Assembly (NCBI GenBank): GCA_964016885.1
Contig: OZ024756.1
Span: 7,006,001 to 7,070,000 of the forward strand
Length of the DNA: 64,000 bases
Source: Eledone cirrhosa
Lineage: Eukaryota
Reading direction: 5' to 3'
Positions within the stretch are counted from its first letter, which is position 1; every line of letters starts with the position of its first letter. Positions 2,445-58,247 of the stretch are shown in pieces. The translations under genes were made by a program, and so were the position numbers. The notes beneath the pieces were generated by a model. That model did not search any database. It was given only the letters and a program-made list of their open reading frames with translations, and was not told where the DNA came from.

Positions 2445-3425
2445 TAGTGGGAACTAACTTATGAGAGAGGAAGTTATACACAATATACTATTGTGGGAAC
2501 CAACCCACGCGGGTGTAAGTTATACACGAGATATTATTGTGGGAACCTGCTCACAGGAGACATGTTATACACAAGAAACTATTGTGGGAACCAACTCACG
2601 GGAGAAGAAGTTATACACAAGGCTGTGTGGGAACTAACTCGCGGAAGAGGACGTTATACACAAGAAGCTATCGTGGAAACTGACTCACAGGAGAGTAAGT
2701 TATACACAAGCAACTATTGTGGGAACCGTCTCACAGGAGAATAGGTTATATACAAGATACTATGGTGGGAACCAACTCATGTGGGACACGATTATACACA
2801 AGATACTACTGTGGGAACCAAGTCACGGGGGAGTAGGTTATACACAAGATAGTATTGAGGGAACCAACTCACAGGAGAGTATGTTATACACAAGATAGTA
2901 TTGAGGGAACCAACTCATTGGGGAGGAAGTTGTACACAACATACTATTGTGGGAACCAACTCACGGGATTGTATGTTAAACGTAATATACAGTTGTGGGA
3001 ACTAACTCACGGAAATGGAAGTTATACACAAGAAACTATTGCGGAAACCAACTCAGAGGAGAGTGGGTTATACACAAGATACTATTGTGGGAACCAACTC
3101 CCGGGAGAGTAGATTATACGTAAGATTCTGTTTTGGGAACTAACTCTCGGAAGAGGAAGTTATACACAAGAAACTATTGTGGAAACCAACTCACAGGAGA
3201 GTAGGTTATACACAAGATACTATTGTGGGAACCAACTCCTGGGAGAGTAGGTTATACGTAAGATTCTGTTGTGGGAACTAACTCTCGGAAGAGGAAGTTA
3301 TACACAAGAAACTATTGTGGGAACCAACTCACAGGAGAGCAGGTTATATACAAGAAACTATTGTGGCAACCTGCTCACGGGAGAGGAAGTTATACACAAG
3401 ATACTATTGTGGGAACCAACTCGCG
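2445..3425. repeat. 46-bp minisatellite, about 21 copies
   Basis: Unit GTTATACACAAGATACTATTGTGGGAACCAACTCACAGGAGAGTAG with point variants. Confidence 0.92.
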
Positions 3426-6097: not shown

Positions 6098-6895
6098 TAT
6101 ATGATAGTAGCATTGTGTTACTTGACTTTGGCAGGATAAAGAGCCACACCACCACCACGACCACCAGGTTTTATACTAAAGGCGGCGATCAAATGAATGC
6201 GCTAAATAATTTAACTGAATGTACTACAAGCTTGACCGACTCATTACTCTGTTTGTATAAAAAGATTAATTTATAGAACCGGCTTGATGAAAGCATTATT
6301 AATACTACAATCTTATACCTGAGGATCAGAATTAGGACGAATATATTACAAAACCTAGTTCCTATTTTAGGCAGAAGGCCAGCAATCTAGAGGAGGATAT
6401 CGCCATTTAACCCTTTAGCATTTACAGCATAGTTACTATTGTATTTTAGTGGTAAAAGCTTATCTCACATAATCATCTCACAGGATTAACTCCCCTGCTA
6501 CAGTTGGTACTCACTCATCTCAGCCGAGTGTACTGGAGCAACATGAAATATAGTGTTTTGCTCAGGAACACCACACAGGATTCGAACCTATGACATTACG
6601 ATCGTACCTCAAGTTTCCTATCCATTAGGCCACACGTCTTTACGCTGTAAGTTAGTGTCACTATTTTACGACTGCGTGTTGTGACCGGAAGCATTATATG
6701 TTTATTTTTGACAAGCTAAATGTTTTCCATGGTCTTCCGAATTACAATTATGCAAGCATGGCTGTGTGGTATAGAAGTCTGATGCACAACCACGTGGTTT
6801 TTGATTCAGCCCAATTGCGTGGCATCTTGGATAGATGTCTGTAGCTACAGGTCACGGGTGAACATTCTCTGCTGTCTGCTGCAGAAGCACAATCG

Positions 6896-6920
<25 letters not shown>

Positions 6921-6926
<6 letters not shown>

Positions 6927-7624
6927 ATAAATTAACGGAGGCATAGGCCGTCGTTATTCCCTGTAAATAATGTGCTCAAAGGGGAAGAGATCCTGAGCCC
7001 TTTAAAATATAATATGTTGAGAAGGTAACACACCAGAGAGAGATATATAGTGCATTATCAATAATACAGGGAAAAAACCACCAGTGTATGGCATCTATAA
7101 CCTATGAAAGGCAGACTATAGACACGATAATTAAAAATATAAATTAAAGCGTAAATAAATACCTCTATAACTATATAACACACGTACATATCCAAAGATA
7201 TGTTTCACCAGAAAATTTGTTGAAAGAAATGGTAGTCTCGGTTCATCAGCGTGTGCAAGGCCATACATTTCAGACAACACTAAGAGAATTTTACAATTGA
7301 CTGTCCAGCTACACGTGGGAGAGAGAAGTCACAGCGTGTTTAAGGGCAGTGAACCAGTGGCCTCTGAGAGACGAACTGCTAGAAAGGGCAGCCCAAAGCC
7401 ACTCAGAGAAGTGTGCTCAACCAAACAGAGATAGGAGAGGCTGTTATTAGGAGCGAAATATCACGATAAATTAACGGAGGCATAGGCCGTCGTTATTCCC
7501 TGTAAATAATGAGCTCAAAGGGGAAGAGATCCTGAGCCCTTTAAAATATAATATGTTGAGAAGGTAACACACCAGAGAGAGATAATGCACTATATATCTC
7601 TCTCTGGTGTGTTACCTTCTCAAC

Positions 7625-7632
<8 letters not shown>
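6921..7632 (-). mobile_element. Non-coding PLE-type / retrozyme-like unit: 539-bp period, about 125-bp direct redundancy, about 50-bp inverted end
   Basis: 6921-7045 repeated at 7460-7584; 7581-7632 is the reverse complement of 7008-7059; (TA)n flanks; internal hammerhead. Confidence 0.8.
7179..7255 (-). ncRNA. Canonical type I hammerhead ribozyme
   Basis: Minus strand CACACG-CTGATGA-ACC..GGT-GAAA-CATATC tttg GATATG-TA-CGTGTG; all three stems pair. Confidence 0.88.
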
Positions 7633-7680
<48 letters not shown>

Positions 7681-7683
<3 letters not shown>

Positions 7684-7875
7684 CGAAGGAAATGTGGTAA
7701 GGAACTAGGTGGACCATAACGCACCAAATAACTCAATACTTAGGGTAGTAGAGTGGGTAATAGGACCGAGTAGGACCCCGACGGCTGAGCTCAAGCCGCT
7801 TCGACGGCTAATTCTGGACTCCAGAATTAGCCGTCGAAATGGCTTGAGCTCAGCCGTCGGGGTCCTACTCGTTCC

Positions 7876-7877
<2 letters not shown>
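7681..7877. mobile_element. Short fold-back family, copy 1 (3' half of a hammerhead + conserved tail)
   Basis: Inverted arms around GACGGCTA..TAGCCGTC; tail GGACCATAACGCACC shared with 25461, 35236, 50070 and 50438. Confidence 0.75.
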
Positions 7878-7956
<79 letters not shown>

Positions 7957-8248: not shown

Positions 8249-8292
<44 letters not shown>

Positions 8293-8333
8293 CAATATTA
8301 AATAAATGGAAACTATATTTATAAAACCATATT

Positions 8334-8399
8334 TATTTCATTATATATATTTCAGGGATATCATATTAACAATATGCTATGCCTTCCTCAGACAAAATA
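8334..8399 (-). ncRNA. Type I hammerhead ribozyme in inverted pLTR
   Basis: Reverse complement of 8811-8876. Confidence 0.72.
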
Positions 8400-8810
8400 C
8401 AATATAAACAGTTTTATAGATAAATAGATTCGACATACCGTAACAGCATCGACTTGCATTTGAAAAGGTTGATTTGGTAGTGAAAAAATTGTACACAGAG
8501 AGAAAGAAAGAGAGAAAAAAAAATATATATATGTATCTATCTCTATTTCCTCTCTCTCTATATATATATATATCTCTTTCTGTTTCTTTACATGAAGTTC
8601 TTCTCTTTATCTATCTTTCCATCTCTCTATTTTGTTCCATGCATTTCTTCTTTTTCTTCTTTTTCTTCGTTTTCTGTCTTTCTTTCCTTTTTTTTCTCTC
8701 TTTCTTTCTCTCTGTGTACAATTTTTTCACTACCAAATCAACCTTTTCAAATGCAAGTCGATGTTGTTACGGTATGTCGAATCTATTTATCTATAAAACT
8801 GTTTATATTG

Positions 8811-8876
8811 TATTTTGTCTGAGGAAGGCATAGCATATTGTTAATATGATATCCCTGAAATATATATAATGAAATA
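8811..8876 (+). ncRNA. Type I hammerhead ribozyme in 5' pLTR
   Basis: TATTTTGT-CTGAGGA-AGG..CCT-GAAA-TATATA-TA-ATGAAATA; stem I pairs with G-U wobbles. Confidence 0.75.
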
Positions 8877-9054
8877 AATATGGTTTTATAAATATAGTTT
8901 CCATTTATTTAATATTGTAAATATACTCCAAATATTTGTCGAGTGCTTTTATATAAGTTATAAATATTTACTAGTTGTAACCCAACAATTTAAATATAAC
9001 TTTCCATATATCTTGCTCCAATACTGTTGAGCGCTTTATATTATAACTGGAAAA

Positions 9055-11268
9055 ATGGAATTCTTTAAGATTACTTCCTCTTTAAAAGACATACCTCTAC
9101 CTAGAAACAAAGACTTTATAAAACAATTAATAGATAAATCTGACTCTTTTATAAGGAGAATCAGGTGGCGAGCATTCCACTTTGATAAATCTAATACAAA
9201 CGAAAATGTCTCGGACTTAAACAAAGTTTTCAAATCTAAAAGAAATCCACCCCCTAACAAACTTTTATCTGACTTTGAAAACGATATAATTTCTATCATA
9301 CAAGGGGTCAAATTCAAGAGAAACTTCAAAGGCCAGGAATATCTGAAAGGCATTAAGGATAACATTGAGAGCTTAGAGAGAACTGAGAAGATCTTGGTGA
9401 AATCTGACAAGACCAACAACCTCTATGGAGTGCAGAAAGACATGTATAATGGCCTCATACTGAAAGAGCTGAGGAAAAAGTACAAGGTAGCAGATAAGGC
9501 CGAGCTTGAGAAAATGAATGTCGAAGCATCTTGTATAATGCACGAGTTGGAAATTGAGAACAGAACACAACCTTTCGTGCCCAGGAAACCGAAGATCAAT
9601 ATGAAAGATCACAAGCGGAATTTTGAAAATGACCTGCCAGTTAGATTGATCGCACCATCAAAATCGGACCTGGGCAAATTAAGCAAAAACATTCTTGACA
9701 GGGTGATACAAAAAATTAAGAACTTGGATTGTTTATCTAACCTGAGCTTGTGGAAGGGAACTGGAGAGGTTGTTGAGTGGTTTAAGCAAATTAAATATAA
9801 CAATAATAATAAGTTTATTCAACTTGATATAGCTAACTATTATTCTTCTATTACCCCTAATCTACTAAATAAGGCACTAAATTACGCATTCAAACATACT
9901 TACCTAACTAGCAATGAAATGCATATTATATTATCGGCTAGGAAAACTTTGATAGAAGTTAATGACCAACTATGGACCAGAGCAGATAGAGATAGCAATT
10001 TTGACATTACTATGGGATCATCCGACTCAGCCCAGGTAACTGACCTTGTGGGCTTATTTTTAATCAATTCGCTACATAGGAAAATACCCGGTACTACCGG
10101 AGGTTTATATAGAGACGACATGCTTTTACTTATTGATAATAATAACTCTGAACTAAATAGAAAATGTAAACAAATTACACAATTTTTTAATTACTTTAAT
10201 CTTAAAATAGAAATTGAGAACAACCATAGAATAGTCAATTTCCTAGATATAACATTAAATCTCAACACATGTCTTCACTATCCTTTTCACAAGTTGAATG
10301 AAAACTTAAACTATGTAAACTTTAACTCTAACCACCCCAGATCTGTCAAAAACACTATAGTAAACTCTGTTCAAAAGCGTATCTCTAGGATCTCGTCGAA
10401 TAGAAAGATTTTCGACGAAAAAGCCCAATACTACAATGAAGCATTAGCTAGAGCAGGATATGCTGATAAGATTGTGTACATAGATAATGATAGACAAACT
10501 AAACAATGTAACAACTTTTTTAATTACGGCAACATCCTTAACAACTATAATAGAAAGCATTACAATAATTCCAAAGGCCAAAAAAGAAGTAGAACTAGGA
10601 ACATAATTTGGTTTGCCCCCCCTTTCTCACTAAACATTAAAACCCACATCGCTAAACTATTTTTTAAAGCTCTTGATAATCGCTTCCCTAGAACACATAG
10701 ATATCACTCAATTTTCAATAGACATACAATTAAATTAACCTACTCATCCACCAAAAATTTAGTACAAAATATCAATAGAATAAATAATAGGAACTTAAAA
10801 CCTAGTGATAATAGCATAAATAATATACAAGTTAACAAATGTAACTGTAGAGATAGATCTAAATGTCCGTTAAATAACAACTGCTTAGTTAAAAATATAG
10901 TATACAATTGTAATGTTAATACTGACTCTAATTCTTTTAACTACGTCGGTTCCACATCGACGGAATTTAAACTTCGCTATAATAACCACAAGAATTCTTT
11001 CACAGATCCAAGCAAAAAATCTTCAACGGCACTATCAGGCGTACTATGGCAACTTAAGCTAGATAACGTTAGATATTCGACGGCTTGGAATATAGTCTCA
11101 AGAGGGATTCCTTTTAATTCATCCTCTGAGACATGTGACCTCTGCGCAGAGGAGATATTCTTTATACTAAAATCTAAAAATTCCCTTAATCTACGGACAA
11201 ATTTATTCAGTTGTTGCAAACATAGATTAAACTCAACATTTAAATATAAATTTAAATTTAAAATGTAA
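9055..11268 (+). CDS. Penelope-like element polyprotein (reverse transcriptase + C-terminal GIY-YIG endonuclease), Naiad-like, 737 aa, uninterrupted
   Basis: RT motifs KINMKDHK, PVRLI, QLDIANYYSSI, ITMGSSDS, YRDD, NFLDITL; Cys linker CNCRDRSKCPLNNNC; GIY-YIG-like NIVY...NYVGST, FKLRYNNH, CDLCAEE, CCKHR. Naiad assignment is from recalled motif style, not a phylogeny. Confidence 0.93.
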   Translation: MEFFKITSSLKDIPLPRNKDFIKQLIDKSDSFIRRIRWRAFHFDKSNTNENVSDLNKVFKSKRNPPPNKLLSDFENDIISIIQGVKFKRNFKGQEYLKGIKDNIESLERTEKILVKSDKTNNLYGVQKDMYNGLILKELRKKYKVADKAELEKMNVEASCIMHELEIENRTQPFVPRKPKINMKDHKRNFENDLPVRLIAPSKSDLGKLSKNILDRVIQKIKNLDCLSNLSLWKGTGEVVEWFKQIKYNNNNKFIQLDIANYYSSITPNLLNKALNYAFKHTYLTSNEMHIILSARKTLIEVNDQLWTRADRDSNFDITMGSSDSAQVTDLVGLFLINSLHRKIPGTTGGLYRDDMLLLIDNNNSELNRKCKQITQFFNYFNLKIEIENNHRIVNFLDITLNLNTCLHYPFHKLNENLNYVNFNSNHPRSVKNTIVNSVQKRISRISSNRKIFDEKAQYYNEALARAGYADKIVYIDNDRQTKQCNNFFNYGNILNNYNRKHYNNSKGQKRSRTRNIIWFAPPFSLNIKTHIAKLFFKALDNRFPRTHRYHSIFNRHTIKLTYSSTKNLVQNINRINNRNLKPSDNSINNIQVNKCNCRDRSKCPLNNNCLVKNIVYNCNVNTDSNSFNYVGSTSTEFKLRYNNHKNSFTDPSKKSSTALSGVLWQLKLDNVRYSTAWNIVSRGIPFNSSSETCDLCAEEIFFILKSKNSLNLRTNLFSCCKHRLNSTFKYKFKFKM

Positions 11269-12668
11269 TATATTTAGTTTGATTTATAATTATATGGGAA
11301 ACTAGCCGATAAATCTTTGATTCTCTTTTTATAAATTTTTGATTCTCTTTTTATTCTTTTTATTTTTATTTTATTTTATTTTTATTTAAACATTCTTCAT
11401 GAAAAATTAAGCTACCCTAAAAGTTGATGCTCCAAATATTTCGAATAAACGTTACACTAGATAAACTTCTATATTAAATATAAGAACACATGTAGACCAA
11501 ATTGGGCATCCTAAACTTTTTGAAATGATCTTTGCTAGATGCGATTTGATAGATAATTTTTGGCTTTATCTGTTTTTCGACTCTGATGTTTATAATGAAC
11601 TTGGCAATATATTGTCAATTAATTTTGAAGGGTTGATCTTTGTGGTTTATCTTATTTTATTTTTATTATTGTAGTATTTCCTAATATTTTTATTTTTAAT
11701 ATTTTTAATATGTAAATTTTTTAATATGTAATATTTTTAATATGTAATATTCTTTCGTAATATTTTTTAGTTTTCTATTTTATTATTACTTATTATTATT
11801 ATTGTTATTTTTAGTTTTGTTTCTGATATATTTTTATTTTTATTAGTATATTGAAATCTGCTCTATTTTTGCTTGATAGATAATCTTGTAGAGTAGAGAC
11901 AGAAATAGTAATATTGACTCTATATACACATATATGTATACATAAATTTTTATACCACATTGAGAATGTTTTCCGTGAGCCTAGGGTTTGCAGAGTTGAT
12001 CATGTAGATTCACATAGATGTTTGTAATTATCACATAAACATATGAATTTTTTTAAAAAACTAAACATAAGATCATTAATTTTCACACATTGTGGATACA
12101 TGTCTCATTCAGGAATACTGATATTTACAATGTAGTGGCTGGTTTTGTAAATACTAATACCTCTACATTAAAACAGAGGTTTTTACGCCTCGCCTGTGTC
12201 TGGTTATTTTTAAATTTTTTTCTCTCTCTATTTTTTCTCTCTCTATATTTTTTCTCTATATATATAACAGCTGGTTTCTCTCCATATATCTCCCTTACAT
12301 TAATACTAGAGCTAAATAAATAAATAAATAAATAAATGTATCATTGATACGTTATTCAACAGACGTCCCACTACCTAGTTTTCTATATATATGTATCTAT
12401 CTCTATTTCCTCTCTCTCTATATATATATATATATCTTTCTGTTTCTTTACATGAAGTTCTTCTCTTTATCTATCTTTCCATCTCTCTATTTTGTTCCAT
12501 GCATTTCTTCTTTTTCTTCTTTTTCTTCGTTTTCTGTCTTTCTTTCCTTTTTTCTCTCTTTCTTTCTCTCTGTGTACAATTTTTTCACTACCAAATCAAC
12601 CTTTTCAAATGCAAGTCGATGTTGTTACGGTATGTCAAATCTATTTATCTATAAAACTGTTTATATTG

Positions 12669-12734
12669 TATTTTGTCTGAGGAAGGCATAGCATATTGTT
12701 AATATAATATGCCTGAAATATATATAATGAAATA
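12669..12734 (+). ncRNA. Type I hammerhead ribozyme in 3' pLTR
   Basis: CTGAGGA, stem II AGGCATA/TATGCCT, GAAA, palindromic stem III, UA cleavage site, stem I TATTTTGT/ATGAAATA. Confidence 0.8.
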
Positions 12735-12863
12735 AATATGGTTTTATAAATATAGTTTCCATTTATTTAATATTGTAAATATACTCCAAATATTTGTCGA
12801 GTGCTTTTATATCAGTTATAAATATTTACTAGTTGTAACCCAACAATTTAAATATAACTTTCC

Positions 12864-13673: not shown

Positions 13674-13734
13674 TTTAATTCTGATGACTGAAAGCAAATT
13701 TTGTTTGCTTTCAAGAAACCACTGGTAAATGAAA
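13674..13734 (+). ncRNA. Type I hammerhead ribozyme
   Basis: CTGATGA, stem II TGAAAGCAAA/TTTGCTTTCA, GAAA, CCA-c-TGG, TA; a degenerate relative lies at 7995-8056 (CTGAATGA..GAAACC..GGTA, same TTTATTACATAA tail). Confidence 0.72.
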
Positions 13735-13786
13735 TAATTATCTTATGTTGTTTATTACATAACTATATATATATAAATATATATTT

Positions 13787-14043
13787 AAGCAAGGAGATAT
13801 TTAATTTGTTGGTAATTCCACAAATATATTTATAACAGATTCGAAGCACTCGACAATTTTTCTGGAGTATAATATCAATGATATTAATAAATGGAAACTA
13901 TATTTATAAAACCATATTTATTCTATTATATATATTTCAAGGGTACCAAAACTTTGGTACCCTCTCATCAGATAAAATACAAAATTTGTTTTATAAATAG
14001 TGCCATAACCAGGAATGAGACCTTAACGGTTCGAGTTCCGTTT

Positions 14044-14079
<36 letters not shown>

Positions 14080-14200
14080 AAACGGAACTCGAACCGTTAA
14101 GGTCTCATTCCTGGTTATGGCACTATTTATAAAACAAATTTTGTATTTTATCTGATGAGAGGGTACCAAAGTTTTGGTACCCTTGAAATATAATAAATTT
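13787..14200. mobile_element. Head-to-head solo pLTR pair around a (TA)n spacer; hammerheads at 13919-13979 (-) and 14144-14198 (+)
   Basis: About 13930-14046 inverted against 14077-14192; CTGATGA-GAGGGTACCAAA/TTTGGTACCCTT-GAAA; terminus resembles the pLTRs of the two large PLEs. Confidence 0.8.
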
Positions 14201-14254
14201 GAAGACTAAAATCCAAGCAGCGATTCTTTGCTTAAACTTTAATCTGTTATTTTA

Positions 14255-14333
<79 letters not shown>

Positions 14334-16302: not shown

Positions 16303-16452
16303 GATGAATTCTATCGTCCTCAACCTTTCCTCCATAATTCCTATTACCTGGGCAATGTTAATCTTGCACTCATTGTAAGGTTTCCAAATATTTAAAATTA
16401 TTTAAATTTGTATTTCCTATACCACAATGCTTCAAACAGGCTACAACACGTT

Positions 16453-16514
<62 letters not shown>

Positions 16515-16521
<7 letters not shown>

Positions 16522-16920
16522 AGATCAAAAGATGGTTAAAGGAGTTCCATATATTTTATTATGCGCATTTCAAAAACAAACATCATCAGGCAATAATATT
16601 TGTGTTTTCATCAGATAAAACAGGAGAACATGATATGAAGGCTAAAAGACACTTGTTGATAGTGCAGTTTTAAATCAACATAACTGCACTATCAACAAGT
16701 GTTTTTTAGCCTTCATATCATGTTCTCCTGTTTTATCTGATGAAAACACAAATATTATTGCTTGATGATGTTTGTTTTTGAAATGCGCATAATAAAATAT
16801 ATGGAACTCCTTTAACCATCTTTTGATCTTATATTATGCATACTCCAGTCCCACAAACTGTAGAGTGCTTCTTATCCGATATCTGCATTGCTTTATTGTA
16901 CTACAATAAAACTCACCCCC

Positions 16921-16922
<2 letters not shown>
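16515..16922. mobile_element. Fold-back pLTR element with hammerheads at 16552-16622 (-) and 16729-16799 (+)
   Basis: TGTTTTAT-CTGATGA-AAACACAAA..TTTGTTTTT-GAAA-TGCGCA-TA-ATAAAATA; near-perfect inverted arms; TA flanks. Confidence 0.85.
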
Positions 16923-16973
<51 letters not shown>

Positions 16974-17026
16974 TAATAAAAATAATGAATAAAAACAAAG
17001 AAACAGTTCCTTATATTAAAAAATTC

Positions 17027-17395: not shown

Positions 17396-18275
17396 GGAAA
17401 GAGAGAAAAATACTGATAGAAATGTTGTTTAGCTCTACGTTTGCTAAGGTTGTATTTTGTCACAACATTAGATATATGAAGACATATATCATTGACACCT
17501 CCCTGTCTTTAAAACTGTAGTGTATATGTAGAAATGCCGGATACTATTCTGTTCCTTTCGCAATTCAAATACTTCTGCTTGAACTTTGCTTTTTATATCA
17601 TTCGGATATTTATATACGATTTGCTAACTCTAATATTTCGCACTCATCGTAATGTTGTGCAGGAAGTTTAGGATTATCAATATACTCATCATCATCTTCA
17701 TTATTATATTCGTTGTCGTGGATTTCTCATTGAAGATTCTCTATCGTTCAGTGACATTTGAAGAATGTAAAATCTAGTGAAAAAAATCTTAGTCATAGGA
17801 GACAAGAGAGCGGTCATGATATTTTGCAGGTGTTATTTAAAGGAAGCAAGTAGAAAGAATGCCAACATCAGTGTGGATTCTGCCAAAGACTAACTCGCTG
17901 GCAAAGGTCAGATGAAAGAATATGTCCACATCCCAATAACAGTGACAGTCTATCCGACAGATATGTACTCAAATTCCGTCTATACAATTTCATTCTCGAT
18001 ACCTCGGAAGACAGGAGGCTTTATTGTGGTAGATGCCTTACAACGAGACTTCACACGAAGTCTCGTGTTCGCCCAAGTGATATTTGTAATTATACGATCA
18101 TACTGTTCACTCATGAAAAGAGAGAAAGCCTGAAAATTTAGCATAGAAAAACTACAGGGCAGTAAAACATACGAGGATAACGTTTCGTCTTATGTAAGAA
18201 TATTAGCGATGTTTTTGACAAAAACAACGTGGGTTTTAAACAGGTCTGAAGTAAGTACAAAAGTAGAGATACGAA

Positions 18276-19325
18276 TCTCTCAGGAGAGCTGGATAGCAGA
18301 AGGTCTTCAGAGAAGAAACCCTCAGGAGAGCTGGACAGCAGAAGGTATTCAGAGATGAAACTCTCAGGAGAGCTCGACAGCAGAAGGTCTTCAGAGAAGA
18401 AACCCTCAGGAGAGCTGGACAGCAGAAGGTCTTCAGAGAAGAAACCCTCAGGAGAGCTGGACAGCAGAAGGTCTTCAGAGAAGAAACCCTCAGGAGAGCT
18501 GGACAGCAGAAGGTATTCAGAGAAAAAATTCTCAGGAGACCTGGACCGTAGAAAGTCTTCAGAGAAGACACTCTCAGGAGATTTGGACAGCAGAACGTTT
18601 TCAGAGAAGAAACTCTCAGGAGAGCTGGACAGCAGAAGTTCTACAGAGAGGAAACTCTCAGTAGAGCTGGAAAGCAGGTCTTCAGAGAAGAAACTCTCAG
18701 GAGAGCTGGACAGCAGAAGGTATTCAGAGATGAAACTCTCAGGAGAGCTGGATAGCAGAAGGTCTTCAGAGAAGAAACCCTCAGGAGAGCTGGACAGCAG
18801 AAGGTCTTCAGAGAAGAAACTCTCAGGAGAGCTGGACAGCAGAAGGTCTTCAGAGAAGAAACTCTCAGGATAGCTGGACAGCAGGTCTTCAGAGAAGAAA
18901 CTCTCAAGAGAGCTAAACAGCAGAAAGTCTTCAGAGAAGAAACTCTCAGGAGACCTGGACAGCAGAAGGTCTTCAGAGAAAAAACACTCAGGAGAGCTGT
19001 ACAACAGAAGGTCTTCAGAGATGAAACTCTCAGGAGAGCTGGACAGCAGAAGGTCTTCAGAGAAGAAACTCTCAGGAGAGCTGGACAGCAGAAGGTCTTC
19101 AGAGATGAAACACTCAGGAGAGCTGGACAGCAGAAGGTCTTCAGAGATGCAACTCTCAGGAGAGCTGGACAGCAGAAGGTCTTCAGAGAAGAAACTCTCA
19201 GGAGAGCTGGACCGCAGAAGGTATTCAGAATATGAAACTCTCAGGAGAGCTAGATAGCAGAATATCTTCAGAGAAGAAACCCTCAGGAGAGCTGGACAGC
19301 AGAAGGTCTTCAGAGAAGAAACCCT
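18276..19325. repeat. 42-bp minisatellite, about 25 copies
   Basis: Unit CTCTCAGGAGAGCTGGACAGCAGAAGGTCTTCAGAGAAGAAA. Confidence 0.95.
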
Positions 19326-24655: not shown

Positions 24656-24884
24656 TCCTCACTTTCTGTTGCTTCACAATTTTGTTTGTTTACCCTCGCG
24701 TCCCCTTTATTTACGTGTCCCAACGACTTTTTTTAGCCGTTGCTCGCACCAACCGGAGGTATATGGTCTTTAAAGCGATGAAATGCCTATGATGGTTGGA
24801 AGATCACTGATGAAGGACAAACTTTTTTCATATGTAACCCGTTTGCAACACCACAGCGCCCTTATTATCATATATATATATATA

Positions 24885-25310
24885 ATATAGGAGGTGAGTT
24901 TTATTGTAGTACAATAAAGCAATGCAGATATCGGATAAGTAGCACTCTACAGTTTTGTAGGACTGGAGTATAAATAATATAAGATCAAAAGATGGTTAAA
25001 AGAGTTCCATCTATTTTATTATGCGCATTTCAAAAACAAATATCACCATGAGATGACATTTGCGTTTTCGTCAGATAAAATAGGGAGACATGATATGAAG
25101 GTTAAAAAACACTTGTGAATAGTGCAGTTTTAAATCAACATATGTTGATTTAAAACTGCACTATTCACAAGTGTTTTTTAGCCTTCATATCATGTTCTCC
25201 TGTTTTATATGATGAAAACACAAATATTATTGCATGATGATGTTTGTTTTTGAAATGCGCATAATAAAATAGATGGAACTCTTTTAACCATCTTTTGATC
25301 TTATATTATA
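24885..25310. mobile_element. Second copy of the 16.5-kb fold-back family; hammerheads at 25012-25082 (-, CTGACGA) and 25201-25271 (+, core mutated to ATGATGA)
   Basis: High identity to 16515-16922 in the opposite overall orientation. Confidence 0.82.
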
Positions 25311-37842: not shown

Positions 37843-38279
37843 AATGTTATATTAAATTTGTTGGAATTCAACAAGCTTAAACATTTTATAACTGATATAA
37901 AGCACTCAACAATTTAGTTGAGTAAATATTCAATATATTAATAAACTATCAATATGCATAATATTGTCTTTACTTCTTCTTCTCTCTTTCTCTTTCTCTT
38001 TTCTTCTCTCTCCCTTTCACTATTCTTTCTCTCTCCACTTCAATAATTTTTCTCTTTCCCTCTCAATATTTTTCCTCTCCCCCTTTACATCTCCTCTTCT
38101 TCCAACAGTTTAATTTAAATAAACTGTTATCTTTTCAATTTTTCTGCCACTCATTTGCATACTCACTCATAACTTTGTATCACCCTCAATAAAATATTAT
38201 CTACACCATCCAGCGAACTTCAACCGTTAAGGTTGTCTTTTTTCCGGGTATGTCAATATTTATTTATAAAACAAATCTG

Positions 38280-38343
38280 TATTTTATCTGATGAAAGCGC
38301 ACCATAATTTGCCTTGGTTGCCCTTGAAATATATAATAAAATA
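38280..38343 (+). ncRNA. Type I hammerhead ribozyme, 5' pLTR of second PLE
   Basis: TATTTTAT-CTGATGA-AAG..GCACCA/TGGTTGC..CTT-GAAA-TATA-TA-ATAAAATA. Confidence 0.8.
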
Positions 38344-38524
38344 ATTATGGTTTTATAAATATAGTTTCCATTTTTTAATATATTGAATATTTACTCCACT
38401 ACGCTGTTGAGTGTTTGTATCAGTTATAAAATTGTTAAGCTTGTTGAATCCCAACAAATTAAATATAACCTCTGCATATATTTAGCTCCTTTATTGTTGA
38501 GCACTTTAAATTATAACTGATTAA

Positions 38525-40790
38525 AAATCGAATTCTTTAAGATCTCTTCTTCTATAAAAGACATACCTTTACTTAGGAATAAGAACTATCTTAAACAACT
38601 TATTGAGAAATCGGACTCGTTTATAAGAAGACTTCGATGGCGTGCTTTTCATTTTGATAAAAAATCAGATGGAAAAGAAAATATATCCAACTTTGATAGG
38701 ATCTTCAAATCCACCTGCCAACAAATTACTAATGGAATTTGAAAATGAAATTATTTCAATCATACAAAACATTAAATTTAAGAAAAACCATTTTGTAGGC
38801 CAGGATTACCTCAAAAGTCTTAAAAATAATATAGAAAATGTTGAAAGAACTGAAACAATTCTTGTTAAATCTGATAAAACCAACAATCTTTACGGAATGC
38901 AAAAGGACGAGTATAATAATTTTATATTGAAGGAATTAAGGAAAAATTAGAAAAGATCAACCAATGATGACCTTGAAATAGTGAAGCTTCTAACATAATA
39001 GTGAAGCTTCTAACATAATAGTGAAGCTTCTAACATAATAGTGAAGCTTCTAATATAATGCAAAAATTAGGCATCGAAAATAGGACTGAACCCGTCATAC
39101 CTAGGAAACAAAAATTAATTTGAAAGACCACAAAAGAAATTTTGAAATAGAATTACCAGTTAGACTTATTGCACCATCTAAATCGGACCTTGGCATAGTT
39201 AGCAAAAATATCTTAGATAGAATCAAATCGCAACTTAAAGAAATATCTTACTTAAAATTATGGAATGGGACTAAGGAAGTTATAGACTGGTTTAAGGACA
39301 TAAAATATAAGCATAACAATAAATTCATTCAATTGGATATTGCTAATTATTACTCATCTATCACTCCTAATTTACTTAATAAAGCCCTTACATACGCATT
39401 TAAATATACTGATTTATCTAGCGATGAAATGCACATCATCTTACGTAAAACCATAATTAAATTTAACAACCATCTTTGGACTAGAGCAGATAGGGATAAC
39501 AATTTCGATATTACTATGGGGTCATCGGACTCGGCACAATTAACGGATCTTGTGAGGCTTTTTCTTAACAATACTTTACATAGAAAAATACCAGAGTTAA
39601 CCGGTGGTTTATATCGTTATGATATGCTATTGCTTATTGAAAATAATATTAATTGTGAAATCAATAGGAATAGAAAATCAATAATACAATTTTTAATTGC
39701 GTTAATCTTAAAGTAGAAGTAGAGAATAATTATAAAATAGTTAATTTTTTAGATGTAACATTAAACCTTAATACTGGTCTTTATTATCCATTTCATAAAA
39801 TAAATGAGAATTTAAACTATGTTAACTTTAATTCCAATCACCCGAGATCCGTTAAAAGCACTATTGTAAATTCCGTACAGCAACGTATTTCTAGAATTTC
39901 AGAGAATAAAAATACATTTGAAGATAAGGCACAATATTATAACGAAGCTTTAAGTAGAGCAGGCTATAATAATGAAATTAAATACATTGATAATAAAGAT
40001 ATGCCAATTAACCGTAATTATAATTATAATTATAATTATAATAAGAAACCTAGTACTAACTCTAAAATTAAAAAACGAAATAGAACTAGAAATGTATTCT
40101 GGTTCGCTCCCCCTTTCCAATTAAGTATTCAAACTGCAATAACTAAACTATTTTTTAAAGCTCTAGATAATTGTTTTCCCGAGACACATAGGTATCACTC
40201 AATCTTTAATAGACATACACTTAAACTATCATATTCTGCCACTATAAATTTAGCGCAGAATCTAAATAGAATTAATAATAGAAACTTAAAACTTAACCAG
40301 AATAGCATTAATACCTCTAGCAACATCCAATATAATGATAGTGTTCCCAATAATATAAATTCCGATAAATGTAATTGTAGAAATAAATCTAACTGTCCTT
40401 TAAATAATAACTGTTTAGTTAAAAATGTAGTATACAATTGCAATGTCAAAACCAATGATAATTCCTTTAACTATATCGGCTCTACTTAGACAGACTTCAA
40501 ATCTCGTCTGAATAACCATAAATGTTCCTTTACGAATATTGGTAAAAAATCTTCAACTTCTATATTCAACTTATTATGGAACTTAAAATACAAGAATATA
40601 AACTATTCTTTATCTTGGAATATTGTCTCCAAAGCACCATCCTAACAGCTCTATCCAAATTTTGCAGCCTATGCTTAGAAGAAATATTCTTTATACTAAA
40701 ATCTAAGAACTATATTAATTTGCGTAATAATTTATTTAGTTCTTATAAACATCGTTTAAATTCAACTTTTAGATATATATATATATAACA
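38525..40790 (+). pseudogene. Frameshifted PLE RT/GIY-YIG ORF
   Basis: Fragments ILVKSDKTNNLYG, KDHKRNFEIELPVRLIAPSKSDLG, QLDIANYYSSI, ITMGSSDS, YRYD (mutated YRDD), CNCRNKSNCPLNNNC, YIGST; stops, frameshifts and four tandem copies of a 20-mer at 38981-39060. Confidence 0.9.
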
Positions 40791-42294
40791 TGTAATATAT
40801 GGGCAATCTTCCTTACATAACGTTTTCTATATCCAAACACCTATAATCTCATCCCTCAGATTATATCTATATATGATTCAAGAATTTAATATAATTCTAA
40901 CCTTAATAACTTCCTAAATATATAAAATACACTTATTAAATTTTTTATTTACTCCTTAAAACCTTTACTTTCTAATATTTCTACTTCATAAATATACTTT
41001 GTATTATTACACTTATCAATCCTACCTCCAAAAAATATATCATAACCTTTCTATATGACTACTTGAAATTCTTTAAAGAAAAGGTTTTGAAAATTCTAAA
41101 AATTTCCTTTGAAAGACTTTCTGAAAGTTTTGGTAAAATTTTTGAAAGATCATTTTGAAAGATATGGAAAAAACATTATTTTCATATCTTCCAATATTTT
41201 TTATATCTTCCAATATTTTAAACATTGTTAATATTTATGTATTTTCATATATACCCAAATATTTATATTTATGTGGAATAATGTATGGGTTATGTTTTAA
41301 TTATATTTTAAGATGAATTTTTATAACTTTTTATAACTTTTTATAACTTCTTATAACATTTTAAAGATATCTTTATCTATTCTTGGAGTCATTTGAGTTT
41401 TTTTTAAATCCCTTTTAACTTCCTTTAAACTTCCTTATTGTTTTTCTAATCTCAATTTTTATAGTCTTAATTTATAGTCTGAAATTTTAATATATACATC
41501 TAATTATGTACTTATTCCTTTGTAAACTCTCGTAAATTTTCGTAATTTTTGTAATTATTTGGATGTTTAAGATTTGACATAACTATTAATAAATTCTGGC
41601 TAAATATAATTTTGCCAAACTTACTTTAATCAAATAAACTATACTAGATTTTTTCCAATGTAAAATACTATACATTTAAATAATTTATAATCTATAACAT
41701 AACATACCCATCTAAACCCATATATTATTAATACATCTTAATATATTTTAAATACTTCTTTTTGTAATATATCCTATTTTAATTAAATTTTAATTACATT
41801 TTTAATTAAATTCTAACAATATTCTTAAATCTTAACAATTTTTTATCCTTAATTTAATTGTTTAACTTATCATTATAAATATAAACATAGCATAATGAAC
41901 GTTATATTTACGTTCTGCGTATTCATCTATGTAAAACTTATTTCTTCGTTCGCTTCGCTTCTCTTCACTATCACTATGCATACTCTTGTCTTTCCTTCTT
42001 CTTCTCTCTTTCTCTTTTCCTCTCTCTCCCTTTCATTATTCTTTCTCTCTCCTTTTCAATATTTTTTCTCTCTCCCTCTCAATATTTTTCTCCCTCCCTT
42101 TTACATCTCCTATCTTCCAACAGTTTAATTTAAATAAACCGTTGTTTTTTCAATTTTTCTGACACTCATTTGCATACACACTCATAACTTTATATCACCC
42201 TCAATAAAATAGTATTTCTACTATCCAACGAATTTCAACCGTTAAGGTTGTCTTTTTTCCTAGTATGTCAATATTTATTTATAAAACAAATCTG

Positions 42295-42360
42295 TATTTT
42301 ATCTGATGAAAGCGCACCATAATTTGCCTTGGTTGCCCTTGAAATATATATAATTAAAAA
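42295..42360 (+). ncRNA. Type I hammerhead ribozyme, 3' pLTR of second PLE
   Basis: Same core as 38280-38343; stem I partly eroded. Confidence 0.7.
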
Positions 42361-42400
42361 ATTATGGTTTTATAAATATAGTTTCCATTTATTAATATAT

Positions 42401-42471
<71 letters not shown>

Positions 42472-42472
42472 T

Positions 42473-42506
<34 letters not shown>

Positions 42507-42513
<7 letters not shown>

Positions 42514-42822
42514 AATAGGATTTCGCTTCAAGCATAGCTTTATATAGTATGTATAGAAATTTCGTATTTCGAAAGAAATATGATTTTAGGAAGCCGTAGC
42601 TATGCGAACACGGGGGGGGGGGGGGGCTATGCTTGAAGCGAAATCCTATTTCTTTTCTGTTATAAGTTGAGCCAACTTACGCAGCTTCATATGCAAATGA
42701 AGTTAATCACTCTTGCTTCTGCTGGACAACGGCAGAGGGCGTTAGCTCCCCGGTATCCGCATAGCTACGGCTTCCTAAAATCGTATTTCTTTCGAAATAC
42801 GAATTTTCTATGCATAATATAT
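42507..42822. repeat. Interleaved inverted repeats with a poly-G junction
   Basis: 42508-42538 inverted against 42626-42656; about 42550-42605 inverted against 42758-42812. Confidence 0.65.
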
Positions 42823-43409: not shown

Positions 43410-44086
43410 ATATGAAATAAAAATTAGAAAGAGAAGCCGGGACTATCCATCATCAGTGATCTACTAGCCATCTTCGCATTAAAGATCAGATACCTCCGGC
43501 TAGCGCGATCATTAACTAAAATATGTTATTGGGATAAAAAGAATTGGGTTGAGAAAGAGAGACAGGTGAACAACAAGAATGGTGAGGCAACGTAAAGAGA
43601 GGAAAATGAGAAAATCAAGTCAGTGATTCATTTGAACATAAGAACTTGCGAACATTGACGAGAAGACGAAATACCATTCGTACCGCGCGAAAAGTGAGCG
43701 AGTAAAGAATTTCGTACATTGCCGGACGATGGAGGAAGTGAGAGAGGCTGAGTAGCAGAGAATGAGTGAAAATGTGAGGAAGAGAGGCTAGTCGAGAGAA
43801 GGTGACTAGCAGAGGGGGAGAATGAAAGTAAGAGGGAGAAGGAGAGAGAAGGGGGAGAGAGCAAGACGATAGCAGTAAGGGAAGAGAAAAAGACAGGTCA
43901 CAGCGAAGGGGAATGAAAATTGGCGTGCTGTGTTGTTGCGAATGTGATACATATGAAGTAAACAATAGAAAGAGAAGCCGGGACTATCCATCATCAGTGA
44001 TCTACTAGCAACGTAAAGAGAGGAAAAATGAGAAAATCAAGTCAGAGATTCATTTGAACATAAGAACTTGCGAACATTGACGAGAA

Positions 44087-44090
<4 letters not shown>
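43410..44090. mobile_element. Terminally redundant non-coding unit (541-bp period) in TA tract
   Basis: 43425-43467 recurs at 43966-44008, followed by a copy of 43588-43668; minus-strand CTGATGA-TGGA/TCC lacks GAAA. Confidence 0.55.
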
Positions 44091-44134
<44 letters not shown>

Positions 44135-44140
<6 letters not shown>

Positions 44141-45112
44141 TTCAAAATATTAACAAAATAGATATTCTTGTGATAAAGTATATTTTATTATACATATTTC
44201 AGAGGTACTGAGTTAAGTTCAACAGTACGTCCTCATCAGATAAAATAAGATGATGCATGACATACCCTGACATAGTAGATGGTTAAGATTCAGTCATGGT
44301 AGTGAGTAATATATGACAAAACTCAATATTTATACCTTAATATTGAGAACATGAGAAAAATATATAATACATACAATAGAGAGGGTGCGTGTAATACAGC
44401 TTTAAAAATACATGGCATCAATATAACTGCTAAAAAAATGTAAATTATTTAAGAAAGAGGAAAGAAAGGACAGCATAGAGGAAGAAAAAAGAAACAGCTG
44501 ATGGGATAATATAGTTAGTAGGTGCCTCGAAAGACAAAAGAGAGATGATTAAAGAGAGAGAGAGAAAGGGGAATAATGTATGTTCAATTCATAGACAATT
44601 ATCCATATATACAATATATATCTAAACTTATTTGGTTGATCGTTAATATTCAAAATATTTAATTTACGTTAGTTTAGAGTAATGAATAATATTTTAGGTT
44701 TTAAAAGTTAATAGGTAACTGTATTAATATTATAGAATACTATCAAGTTTAATTTCTAAAATTCAAATTTTATGAAATCAAATTTAAAGGATTTACAAAC
44801 ACGAGAAAGAAAATATAATGTTTTTATAACCCCACGAAGGTAAACTTTACAAAAATTATTTATAATATTGACAACAGTTTATATAATATAATTTATAAAA
44901 TAATTACAGTTATAATTATTAAAGAATTTATTATTAACAATTTGAGTGCCTAAAGGATCAACAGGCCTTATAATTAAACTTAAAGAAGTCTGAATTTTAA
45001 ATTACATATATGTGTTAATTAAAAAATATACAAGGATTATATTATCTAAAGCCTTAAGGTGATACCTTTCTAATATACATAACAATACAATAATACAATA
45101 TAAGATATGGAT
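44135..45112 (-). mobile_element. PLE 3' end (AT-rich UTR + pLTR) with hammerhead at 44181-44247
   Basis: TATTTTAT-CTGATGA-GGACGTACTG..CAGTACCTCT-GAAA-TATGTA-TA-ATAAAATA; TA flanks. Confidence 0.7.
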
Positions 45113-46489: not shown

Positions 46490-47757
46490 TTTGTGAAATG
46501 GGTCGTGGTTGAAATTCAGTTGTGCATGGTTAAATGGTAGTAGACGTGGTCGGACGGACATGAACATTTACACACCTATGTAAAAAGTGCCAAGGAAGGA
46601 ATTAGATACGGTAAATCTCTAACTTGAAAAATGTGGTCCCTATGGCCCCAAAACTGTCTATTTGCTATCGCTTTCGGTGAGTTTTTTCCCCCTGTTCTAA
46701 TACTTGGGTGAGTTATTTTCCGTAGTCGCTTTCAATATCCATTGTCTTATTTACAATTTCACACAAATTTTTAAACTCATAAATTAGTTCATAACATATC
46801 AAACCCAACATTCTTTCGCTATTAACATACAGTACCGTTTTATGAAATCGATTCTGCAGTACCATTTTACGAAATGCCAAACCGAAAACTGTCACTGTTT
46901 TCTATCAAAAGAAATAAAACCCTTAAATTGCGAAGATGGGAGGCATGTTCTCATGTACGTTTTTTTCCGATATCATTTTTATTTTGATTCTAATACATGT
47001 TAACCACCAATTAACATGTATTATATTCTAGGAGGTGAAGTCTCCTTCAATTCAATTGAAACCAACAAAAATGCGGACGACGCCGTCAACTATCCGATTG
47101 AATTCCTCAACAGTCAACAACCTCCCGGACTTCCACTTCATGAACTTAGACTGAAGGTTGGTGTTCCAGTTATGCTGCTAAGAAACGTGGAACCACCAGA
47201 ACTATGCAACGAGACGCGTCTGATCATCAACAAAATTGGGACACGAATTCTTACGACAAACATTCTGACACAGTTATTATCCCCCATAAGCCTTAGTCCC
47301 TCTGACGTCCCATTTGATTTTACGAGACGGCAGTTTCCCGTAAAACTCTGCTTTGCAATGAGTATCAACAAGGCACAGGGACAGTCGCTGCAAGTAGTTG
47401 GCCTAAATCTGACACAGCAGGTAGTTACCCACGGTCAACTATACGTCGGGTGCTCACGCGTCAGCAGTCCACACAATCTCTACATTTGTGGTAATCCTGG
47501 TAATTCCAGGAACGTTGTCTACAAAGAAGCACTGCAACAACACCTTTGAAGCTTCCGCCATTCCTCTTCCGTCGCCACTCAACGTCTCTCAACGCTTTTC
47601 ACGTCGCTCCACTTCTCATTGTACGCCGTCCAGCCCCAACTGCATATTTCTATTTTTTTTCCCGATACTGCTTCTTTATAATAAACTTTCAATAATATTT
47701 TTCAAATTATTAACTTAATAAAACGTGGCCCCGGGGGCAACCGGGCTCAGCTGCTAG
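46482..47757 (+). mobile_element. Internally deleted Helitron
   Basis: Pif1 helicase C-terminus; subterminal GC hairpin CCCGG..CCGGG at 47729-47745; CTAG followed by T at 47754-47757; 5' boundary uncertain within the TA tract. Confidence 0.8.
47030..47549 (+). pseudogene. Helitron RepHel Pif1-type helicase C-terminal fragment
   Basis: YPIEFLNS..GLPLHELRLKVGVPVMLLRN..LCNETRL..RRQFPVKLCFAMSINKAQGQSL..HGQLYVGCSRV. Confidence 0.9.
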
Positions 47758-47767
47758 TAAATATATA

Positions 47768-48030
47768 TAAGCAAAAGAGACATTTAATTTGTTGGTAATT
47801 CAACAAATAAATATGTTTATAACTGATTCGAAGCACTCGACAGTTTTTCTGGAGTATTATATCAATGATATTAATAAATGGAAACTATATTTATAACACC
47901 ATATTTATTCTATTATATATTTCAAGGGTACCAAAACTTTGGTACGCCCTCATCAGATAAAATACAAAGTTTGTTTTATAAATATTGACATGTCCAGGAA
48001 GAAGACCTTAACGGTTCAAGTTTATCCAGG
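47768..48030 (-). mobile_element. Solo pLTR (same family as 13787-14046) with hammerhead at 47906-47964
   Basis: High identity to 13787-14040; CTGATGA..GTACCAAA/TTTGGTAC..GAAA-TATA-TA. Confidence 0.8.
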
Positions 48031-48034
48031 AAAA

Positions 48035-48478
48035 ATGTCGGGGACCGTGGACAGTAGCAGCAATGTACATCGATATGATGGTGTATGTCGGGAACCATGG
48101 ACATTAACATCAATGTACATTGATATGATGGTGTATGTCGGGGACCATGGACAGTGACACCAATGTACATCGATATGATGGTGTATGTCGGGGACCATGG
48201 ACAGTGACATCAATGTACATCGATATGATGGTGTATGTCGGGGACCATGGATAGTGACATCAATGTACATCGATATGATGGTGTATGTCGGGGACCATGG
48301 ACAGTGACACCAATGTACATCGATATGATGGTGTATGTCGGGGACCATGGACATTAAGACCAATACTCATCTATATGATGGCGTATGTCAGGGACCATGG
48401 CAATTGCACCAATGTACATCGATATGATGCTGTATGTCGGGGACCGTGGACAGTGGCATCAATACACATCTATATGTC
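48035..48478. repeat. 50-bp minisatellite, about 9 copies
   Basis: Unit ATGTCGGGGACCATGGACAGTGACACCAATGTACATCGATATGATGGTGT. Confidence 0.93.
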
Positions 48479-56311: not shown

Positions 56312-57297
56312 AACCTATGGCAACCTACCCTATCGTAAGCTACCCTACGGTACCCTACCTATGGTACCCTACCCTATAGTAACCTAACCTATGGTAACCT
56401 ACCCTATTGTATTTGTAACCTACCCTATGATAACTAACCCTATGGTACCCTACCCTATGGTACCCTACCTTATAGTAACCTACCCTATAGTAACCTACTT
56501 ATGGTAACCTACCCTATGGTAACCTCACCTATGGTACCCTACCCTATAGTAACCTACCCTATAGTAACCTACTTATGGTAACCTACCCTATGGTAACCTC
56601 ACCTATGGTAACCTACCTATGGTAACCTACCCTATAGTAACCTACTCTATGATACCCTACCCTATGGTAACCTAACCTACAGTAACCTAACCTATGGTAA
56701 CCTAACCTACAGTAACCTACCCTATGGTAACCTACCCTACAGTAACCTACCTATGGTAACCTACCCTATAGTAACCTACCCTATGATAACCTACCCTACA
56801 GTAACCTAACCTATGGTAACCTAACCTACAGTAACCTACCCTATGGTAACCTACCCTATGGTAAACTACCCTATGGTAAACTACCCTATGGTAACCTACC
56901 CTATAGTAACCTACTTATGGTAACCTACCCTATAGTAACCTACCCTATGGTAACCTATCCTATAGTAACCTACCCTATGGTAAACTACCCTGTGGTACCC
57001 TACCCTATAGTAACCTACCCTATGGTAACCTATCCTATAGTAACCTACCCTATGGTAAACTACCCTATGGTAAACTACCCTATAGTAACCTACCCTATGG
57101 TAACCTATCCTATAGTAACCTACCCTATGGTAAACTACCCTATGGTAAACTACCCTATGATAAACTACCCTATGGTACCCTACCCTATGGTAAACTACCC
57201 TATGGTAACCTAACCTACAGTAACCTACCCTATGGTAACATATCCTATAGTAACCTACCCTATGGTAAACTACCCTATGGTACCCTACCCTATGGTA
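56312..57297. repeat. 14-15-bp minisatellite GGTAACCTACCCTAT, about 65 copies
   Basis: Direct reading. Confidence 0.95.
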
Positions 57298-57470: not shown

Positions 57471-58172
57471 TGTAGCAAAGCAAACTTTGACTTTCATACT
57501 TCTGATGTCGATAAAATAAATTACCAGTAATGCACTGAGGTCGATAAAGCGACTTTCTCCTTCCCTCAAATTGCCAGCCTTTTGCCTAAATCAGAAATCG
57601 TTTATAATCAATTAAATACCAAATACTATATCAAATATATTTATCGAATCACTATTTTCATGAATGCTATGTGTGTGCAGCAAGGACTTGAATATATACC
57701 AGTTATTGCAAATAGACAAACACAGCACACACTAGGGAGATGCCGTTCTTTTAACTTACCTATAATATATATGGCTTTCAATGTAGAAATTCAAAACATT
57801 CTAGAAACAGTCTACTAGTTAAATATGCTAAAACCTGTTACCTGTATTTGATATGAAAAGATCATTTCCATGGAAGCATAAAATCAAAACGATCCTTTGA
57901 GATTAAAATTGTGTTATGTTCTCTTTTCTAACTATTAAACATCTTATTCGTATATCTAGCTATCAGCTCTGAAGGTAGTCATTTCCCTGCTCTCGTCTCA
58001 GGGGATCAACTCCAAAAATGAATTTACTTTTCCAGCCATCTCTCTATTTGTAAGCATAGCTCAATCTAACAACATATAAAGTCCCTTGCTACCCTAGACA
58101 AGTAGAACATATATATATATATATATATATATATGAATAAACGAAAGATAAATACGTTATATCATCTCTATT

Positions 58173-58247
58173 TATTTCATCTATATTTCGAAGATGTTTT
58201 GCTTTGTGTTATACATAAAAATTTACATGTCCTCTTCAGAAAAAATA
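58173..58247 (-). ncRNA. Type I hammerhead-like motif
   Basis: TATTTTTT-CTGAAGA-GGACATGT..ACATCTTC-GAAA-TA-TA-GATGAAATA, inside a TA-flanked insert. Confidence 0.55.

Follow-up and report, generated by a model that had tools for sequence, protein, structure and literature searches.

A protein-free repeat in the genome of Eledone cirrhosa is probably a hammerhead retrozyme that enters (TA)n tracts as two arms begun from two fixed sites, likely copied by the RT/GIY-YIG protein of Hydra-type Penelope-like elements from a 539-nt RNA that has likely cleaved itself and been circularised. The genomic evidence for the partner of a retrozyme is unusually direct in this family.

The copy that drew attention to the family lies at 6923-7633 of the window, as the whole 64,000-nt stretch of DNA analysed is called here (contig OZ024756.1, positions 7,006,001 to 7,070,000). 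It consists of 1.23 copies of a 539-nt non-coding unit and a 53-nt inverted arm, with (TA)n on both sides. An earlier sequence-only reading had described a non-coding 539-bp unit repeated about 1.2 times, and this was confirmed by a 127-nt direct repeat (6919-7045 and 7458-7584, 99% identical, spacing 539) and by the lack of any long reading frame, the longest ATG-initiated frame being 45 codons in the window element and 26 in a 4-unit array. Numbered from 6923, the unit runs along the insertion from 1 to 539, then from 1 to 123, and then back from 137 to 85. The full non-coding unit occupies 6923-7461, with position 1 at 6923 serving as start site A; its RNA corresponds to the minus strand and its G+C content is 214 of 539. 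The terminal redundancy at 7462-7584 (minus strand) is unit 1-123 recopied past the wrap-around, with a single mismatch (T at 6973, A at 7512). The short inverted end and (TA)n flanks of that reading proved equally real. Positions 7581-7633 are the exact reverse complement of 7007-7059 and form a plus-strand arm, unit 85-137, that begins at site B from the right-hand TA tract; the target tract itself lies at 6896-6922 on the site-A side and at 7625-7682 on the site-B side, where 7634-7682 is outside the inverted arm. The internal start site B is at 7003-7007 (unit 81-85), and the arm junction of this copy shows a 4-nt microhomology. No LTR layout was seen in insertions of the family, and target duplications are unreadable inside (TA)n. 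The window also carries minisatellites at 2447-3422 (46 nt), 18273-19322 (42 nt), 48035-48476 (50 nt) and 56314-57297 (15 nt).

The unit has jumped into (TA)n tracts more than 1,000 times in this 3.0-Gb genome. A genome-wide search returned 2,665 unit candidates (40 scored). Far more often than chance would allow, the first 24 nt are matched exactly at 798 places, with none for the reversed control, and control searches were likewise empty for the 1,158 exact TA-primed starts at site A (position 1 right after TA), the 172 TA-adjacent starts at position 85, site B, counted in one spelling only, and the 620 exact 539-to-1 head-to-tail junctions. The multimeric and permuted copies anticipated by the sequence-only reading are thus borne out by these 620 junctions and by arrays of up to 4.4 units, which occur alongside fragments and monomers. 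Subfamilies range from about 70 to 98% identity with the unit layout unchanged, and the 70%-identical subfamily retains the unit and both sites and has no ORF. We found no description of the family, or of the RCUC...GAGY hairpin discussed below, in the literature, in a search whose scope did not extend to Repbase, Dfam or the supplementary files of PMC7229834 and the bioRxiv study cited below, where the family may be catalogued.

A sample that was not chosen by similarity was taken from the first 100 exact site-A starts (contig C1, 10.9-215.9 Mb), of which 98 could be aligned. Most copies are short: the median site-A arm is 160 nt, and the full unit is reached in 13 of the 98. In 30 loci picked by similarity alone (overlapping loci included), the site-A end likewise adjoins TA. 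One short repeat has been inserted independently at the AT-rich unit position 49-60 in four loci (L142, L151, L206 and L127), and around a LINE-like element in L093 there are three 48-nt unit stubs (2375-2422, 6292-6339 and 6402-6449) in neighbouring TA tracts, two of them identical and apparently duplicated along with their TA tract.

A regularity in the sampled insertions concerns where the two arms begin. The inverted partner of the 98 site-A arms started at site B (80-92) in 56, at site A in 4 and elsewhere in 8, while 30 had none; among the four A-A cases one element is counted twice, and another, L147, looks like a site-B arm that has undergone a deletion. Viewed from the other side, the first 30 site-B arms, a sample that overlaps the site-A one in part, were partnered by site A in 20, by site B in none and by another position in 2, with no partner in 8. 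The rule is therefore a pair of arms with different origins, site A for one and site B for its partner, some 84 nt apart in the unit, and this is the one-sided "tail" signature of Penelope insertions, as described in PMC8557442. The traits by which non-autonomous Penelope-like elements are recognised are all present: partial tandems truncated to varying extents at the 5' end, an inverted 5' arm and a tail at one side only. The insertion into a microsatellite typical of Penelope-like elements is here into (TA)n. The unit is very probably a non-autonomous Penelope-type element. Biochemical precedent comes from an anole Penelope-like element, which in vitro uses two internal initiation sites, cuts and extends both DNA strands, and requires RNA 3' of the start for initiation (PMC11167929).

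A non-coding unit of this kind might also be a pLTR that has become separated from a coding Penelope-like element, itself now scarce in this genome or lost from it. Vertebrate retrozymes are described as resembling pLTRs (bioRxiv 10.64898/2026.07.22.740005), the geometry of hammerhead and start sites in the unit equals that of Hydra pLTRs, and of well over 1,000 loci the analysis covered only some 250, with overlaps among them. Against such an origin, position 539 runs straight into position 1 at all of the exact head-to-tail junctions, and four loci of the most diverged subfamilies have no linked ORF. Copies free of any ORF, which the sequence-only reading had expected, were what the sample contained: among 229 unit-bearing loci, many of them overlapping, no arm end enters a sense Hydra or Neptune ORF without a TA tract in between, in a search that used two protein queries, Hydra and Neptune-like, on a sample and not a census. 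Coding matches near unit arms either are separated from the arm start by a TA tract or lie antisense where the arm ends. A unit found always as the pLTR of an ORF-bearing element, the outcome that reading saw as contrary to it, did not occur in this sample, and the detached-pLTR origin is very improbable. Remote descent of the unit from a pLTR is another matter; it may have happened and is compatible with the lack of ORF-joined copies.

Several apparent parents were considered and set aside. Two rows flagged for a sense ORF turned out to be a neighbour across a TA tract (L203) and a head-to-tail neighbour (L120). The latter and L129, in which a unit arm is followed head to tail by a Hydra end, are interpreted as insertions that came later, into internal TATA sites. 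Three same-strand pairs with a spacing of 3.8-3.9 kb, at first sight a pLTR-ORF-pLTR arrangement, are independent insertions in separate TA tracts.

The unit carries a type I hammerhead motif at 7179-7255 (minus strand), the sole one in the window copy, with a predicted cut between 7185 and 7184 (unit 263/262). Read from 7255 to 7179 on the minus strand, the order is stem I, CUGAUGA, stem II with a 30-nt loop, GAAA, stem III, GUA and stem I. The sequence-only reading had called this hammerhead fully paired; the motif is indeed there, but full pairing is limited to the window copy, since 73 of about 76 young elements covering the column have a U.U mismatch in stem III and two have the window copy's letter. 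Stem II of the window copy comprises three Watson-Crick pairs and one G.U; in 16 of 22 representatives of the family the first stem II pair is A.C. The Rfam search of the window gave no hammerhead match at the gathering score or at E<=10; what it returned at E<=10 were merely hairpin look-alikes of the inverted end. The minimum-energy fold lacks the active core (z -0.96), the hammerhead fold having -13.5 vs -19.0 kcal/mol.

A pattern for the hammerhead core matches the genome 1,083 times, and the reversed control pattern not once. Across subfamilies the core, the three stems and the GUA site are kept. Between old and young copies the majority letter changed in 0 of 26 core and stem I columns, as against 46 of 527 columns overall and 7 of 30 in loop 2, a conservation that suggests selection on the ribozyme. 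Covariation in the hammerhead, measured on rows chosen by a core-requiring pattern, was within the shuffle range (90 of 500 shuffles), with a single pair altered in both partners; in a stem III count, two of the 22 rows (L077 and L215) were mis-anchored. With its single ribozyme, the window copy cannot release a 539-nt monomer by double cleavage, an inability that the earlier reading overlooked. At least two consecutive hammerheads, by which Li et al. define an active copy, are absent from the window copy and present in L096, L097 and L256.

A candidate partner lies close at hand in the window. An independent Hydra-type Penelope-like element occupies 8285-12863 on the plus strand, with an ORF at 9055-11268 (737 aa), hammerheads at 8819 and 12677 (period 3,858) and an inverted arm at 8285-8522; it serves as an example of the likely partner class and not as the parent of the unit. 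The ORF translation contains RW(K/R), DKT, a CxCx5C linker, and CxxC and CxH in the C-terminal endonuclease, and published descriptions of the Hydra clade list those motifs together with (TA)n insertion and hammerheads. The ORF thus appears to belong to the Hydra clade, a label that rests on motifs and not on a tree; a Pfam search with it returned no match. Hydra relatives yielded 40,076 candidates in the genome, and the 150 that were scored are 97-100% identical to the query, many with 745-aa open frames, so that the clade is very abundant and young here. Hydra elements also have two start sites, 88 nt apart and downstream of the hammerhead, and their inverted arms come from site B.

At least five Hydra-type or related hammerhead families fall within the 64 kb of the window (8285-12863, 13711-14260, 16354-16997, 24814-25094, 38268-42563, 43979-44259, 47696-47976 and 57979-58259), with one intact 737-aa ORF and one degraded at 38527-40776. 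Between the unit and the window's Hydra family no significant nucleotide similarity was detected.

What the unit and the Hydra elements do have in common is an RCUC...GAGY stem a few bases 3' of each start on the RNA. In the unit, hairpin A (GCUC...GAGC, 32-nt loop, 7415-7454, minus strand) lies 3' of site A and is reached only via the wrap-around, and hairpin B (GCUC...GAGC, 17-nt loop, minus strand), at 6974-6998 and again at 7513-7537, lies 3' of site B; both are putative start signals. The stem is present at both unit sites and at 8 of 8 further sites, selected by eye, from six other TA-targeted families of the window; among these 10 sites the variable pair is G-C in 4 and A-U in 6. The pairs were read by eye because the site alignment misplaces the 5' arms, which in turn follows from the differing loop lengths. 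The same pattern occurs by chance at 96 of 5,000 random positions, and only 14 of 68 clusters have it in at least half of their internal copies, many of the clusters being low-complexity and several from the same family. Sorted by hammerhead cluster, the hairpin was found in 12 of 12 testable copies of the Hydra-linked cluster, in 0 of 2 copies of a Neptune-linked one, and in 0 of 16 and 0 of 6 in two others. Since one of these last two includes one Hydra-linked copy, some members of the Hydra clade may do without the hairpin. In the unit, the majority letter changed between old and young copies in 0 of 22 hairpin columns. We infer that the hairpin is a recognition signal for the Hydra protein; if real, it would be a compact signal by which a so far unstudied clade carries out target-primed insertion on both strands.

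Other TA-associated families were noted in passing. One adjoins the unit at 7683-7878, with its own site-A arm, the A-U form of the hairpin and a palindromic inverted end of 59 nt that comes from a site some 77 nt deeper inside; it has 35 and 18 starts among the loci examined and may be another Hydra-dependent family. A hairpin-less hammerhead family flanked by TA, whose two ends are separated by about 45 nt, occurs in L167 (1885-2067), L169, L186, L025 and L061, and is joined head to head with the unit in L168. A repeated hammerhead-like motif (L153, minus strand, near 1409) has 18 copies among the loci examined, without the hairpin and with no Hydra or Neptune match nearby.

Because the two-site layout and the RCUC...GAGY hairpin are common to the unit and to young, intact Hydra elements, Hydra is the likely partner, and we hold this part of the reading to be probable. 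Direct joins between the two are less informative. In L153 a unit arm from site A is fused directly to a Hydra pLTR arm ending at Hydra site B, and L203 and L215 are weaker candidates. That said, the unit is joined also to the hairpin-less hammerhead family (L168) and to a Neptune-like endonuclease fragment (L056), so the joins do not single out Hydra, and any head-to-head join could be a deletion between neighbours. The L056 join, the other Neptune-like fragments beside TA tracts in unit loci, and the preference of Naiads for (TA)n described in PMC8557442 would fit a partner from another TA-associated Penelope-like clade, Neptune or Naiad. Such a partner is nonetheless most improbable given that both the hairpin and the distance between the sites (84-88 nt) agree with Hydra, and that the Neptune-linked hammerhead cluster is without the hairpin, in just 2 copies long enough to judge. 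The proposal of the sequence-only reading, mobilisation by a TA-targeting Penelope-like element, is in this way supported by the two-arm anatomy of the insertions and narrowed to the Hydra clade by site spacing and hairpin.

The nature of the RNA template is harder to read from the insertions. Among 67 passages over the cut site, 60 cross it and 7 stop at 255-266, a stop window chosen post hoc (p 0.04 relative to the overall rate). The template must therefore have been mostly continuous there, either a circle or an uncleaved multimer. Neither start coincides with the cut; both are on its 3' side, at distances of 178 and 262 nt, so a cleaved linear monomer could give no arm past position 262. 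In 97 young elements the difference within an element is 1.1% between direct and 1.3% between inverted copies, as against 2.4% between elements. Variants that are common in the family are shared within an insertion in 186 of 202 direct and 106 of 117 inverted comparisons, private ones in 24 of 145 and 18 of 125. Repeats and both arms of an insertion thus share one template haplotype. Genome sequence alone cannot separate a circle from an uncleaved multimer, and our preference for a circle as the main template is a slight one. If hairpin A, which lies beyond the inserted 3' end, is required, linear copying shrinks the element at each round and its length must be restored, and a circle restores the lost length simply. 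Folded as a circle, the unit gives a z of -3.5 against 60 shuffles. A circular template has been proposed earlier for Penelope-like elements and retrozymes (PMC4209133; PMC7229834).

The same non-autonomous element and the same Hydra partner could instead work from an uncleaved read-through transcript of a genomic multimer, or from linear RNAs joined by template jumps, with long arrays regrown by unequal crossover and the ribozyme incidental to insertion. Hammerhead cleavage was unnecessary for the anole element in vitro, unprocessed RNA was its dominant substrate, and no RNA reads ended at the cut (PMC11167929), which makes the uncleaved multimer a real rival. Multimers do exist in the genome, and site A could be primed within a (UA)n tail. 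The longest arrays are not pure monomer repeats: L096 reads X-Y-Y-X, L097 shares variants at one- and two-unit spacing, and L115 switches haplotype near the unit boundary, patterns that point to multimeric templates or to later duplication at the DNA level. Yet if starts need the 3' hairpin, each linear round loses 84 to 539 nt, whereas full units are kept across subfamilies of 70-98% identity. Multimeric sources are also scarce, with two same-strand hammerheads in only 2 of the 98 sampled insertions; the ribozyme core is unchanged across subfamilies; and the seven arms that end at the post hoc cut window suggest that some templates were cleaved. On balance we think this route unlikely, and take the circle as the working template.

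Sequencing runs of unrecorded kind add little here. The 7461-to-6923 joint occurs in 3 of 4 such runs; the joined form is also present in DNA, so a back-junction alone is no proof of a circle. Run X4, which is of unrecorded kind and hence no evidence, differs from X1 and X3 in that a few young variants dominate the depth, with 10 of 30 changed places being A>G; a search for one X4 variant found 10 genomic places, none with all X4 variants.

The preferred reading of a Hydra-copied circle can be laid out as a sequence of steps. A rare locus with at least two hammerheads would be transcribed on the minus strand, and the ribozymes are predicted to cut at unit 263/262, after which a host ligase would close the monomer, as has been shown for coral, mussel and axolotl retrozymes. 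The Hydra protein would then recognise both RCUC...GAGY hairpins and nick both strands of a (TA)n tract. As the genomic pattern shows, the two strands are extended from different sites, A for one and B for its opposite, on one template haplotype, and synthesis runs past the ribozyme cut and over the unit boundary to give the 1.x-unit copies and multimers that are seen. Finally, a head-to-head join would link the two cDNAs, in most cases leaving a short overlap or gap of only a few bases.

A bolder version is offered tentatively, as a possibility we consider doubtful. A viroid-sized circular RNA might dock a Hydra RT dimer, one subunit per RCUC...GAGY hairpin, so that a single circle primes both (TA)n strands simultaneously; the hairpin would then be a general Hydra start signal, and autonomous elements would also move via circles. 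The last point follows from the position of the hairpin beyond the inserted 3' end: if it is a general start signal, autonomous Hydra elements would also replicate through circles. Mobilisation of animal retrozymes by Penelope elements and a circular template are both long-standing proposals, backed mainly by co-occurrence. In this genome a small template occurs together with a young and abundant partner whose frames are intact, two starts have been mapped and a candidate hairpin is at hand, so that a single in vitro assay could address both proposals.

By the criteria that can be applied to a genome, the unit family would rank as an animal non-LTR retrozyme, with cleavage and circle predicted. 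Like the metazoan non-LTR retrozymes of coral, mussel and axolotl described in PMC7229834, it is a non-coding, low-GC repeat with a type I hammerhead and tandem copies, and it co-exists with autonomous Penelope-like elements, which in that account carry minimal hammerheads. Target-primed copying of a circle by Penelope-like elements was proposed there as well. The unit differs in its length (539 nt vs 150-450 nt) and in that its family consists mostly of dispersed, truncated two-arm (TA)n insertions, whereas those retrozymes lie in arrays; the main text of PMC7229834 does not refer to truncation, inverted arms or insertion into microsatellites. The genome itself reveals fixed start sites and a likely partner clade for the unit, unlike the retrozymes as presented there, for which circles and cleavage have been demonstrated, while the unit is known from genome sequence. 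The vertebrate retrozymes of Li, Clavereau and Pollet (2026, bioRxiv 10.64898/2026.07.22.740005) are described with the same proposed relationship and with monomers, dimers and multimers, and the unit falls within their reported 51-972 bp range. In Xenopus the evidence set out in that study is co-occurrence and similarity to pLTR sequences, whereas the unit is linked to its partner by insertion anatomy and the hairpin, with no similarity to the tested Hydra family.

Partial tandems, an inverted arm, a one-end tail, two internal starts downstream of the hammerhead cut and AT-rich targets are features that the unit shares with Penelope-like insertions as described by Craig et al. (2021, PMC8557442) and Frangieh et al. 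(2024, PMC11167929). Its tail is longer (80-88 nt, compared with 30-40 nt in the elements of those accounts) and it has no ORF. The pairing of A-arm with B-arm is near-strict here, whereas the anole protein in vitro showed no strand difference in start site (PMC11167929). Chlamys elements such as MRC1, as presented in PMC8557442, are likewise ORF-less, head-to-tail, multicopy and mobilised by a Penelope-like partner; the unit differs in that MRC1-type elements resemble their autonomous partners at the 3' end and that Chlamys elements are mostly without hammerheads in that account. The class of animal retrozymes and an argued link to Penelope-like elements were thus already known. What this family adds, with no counterpart found for retrozymes in the literature (two supplements lay outside its scope), is a partner clade, mapped starts, near-strict A/B pairing and a shared hairpin.
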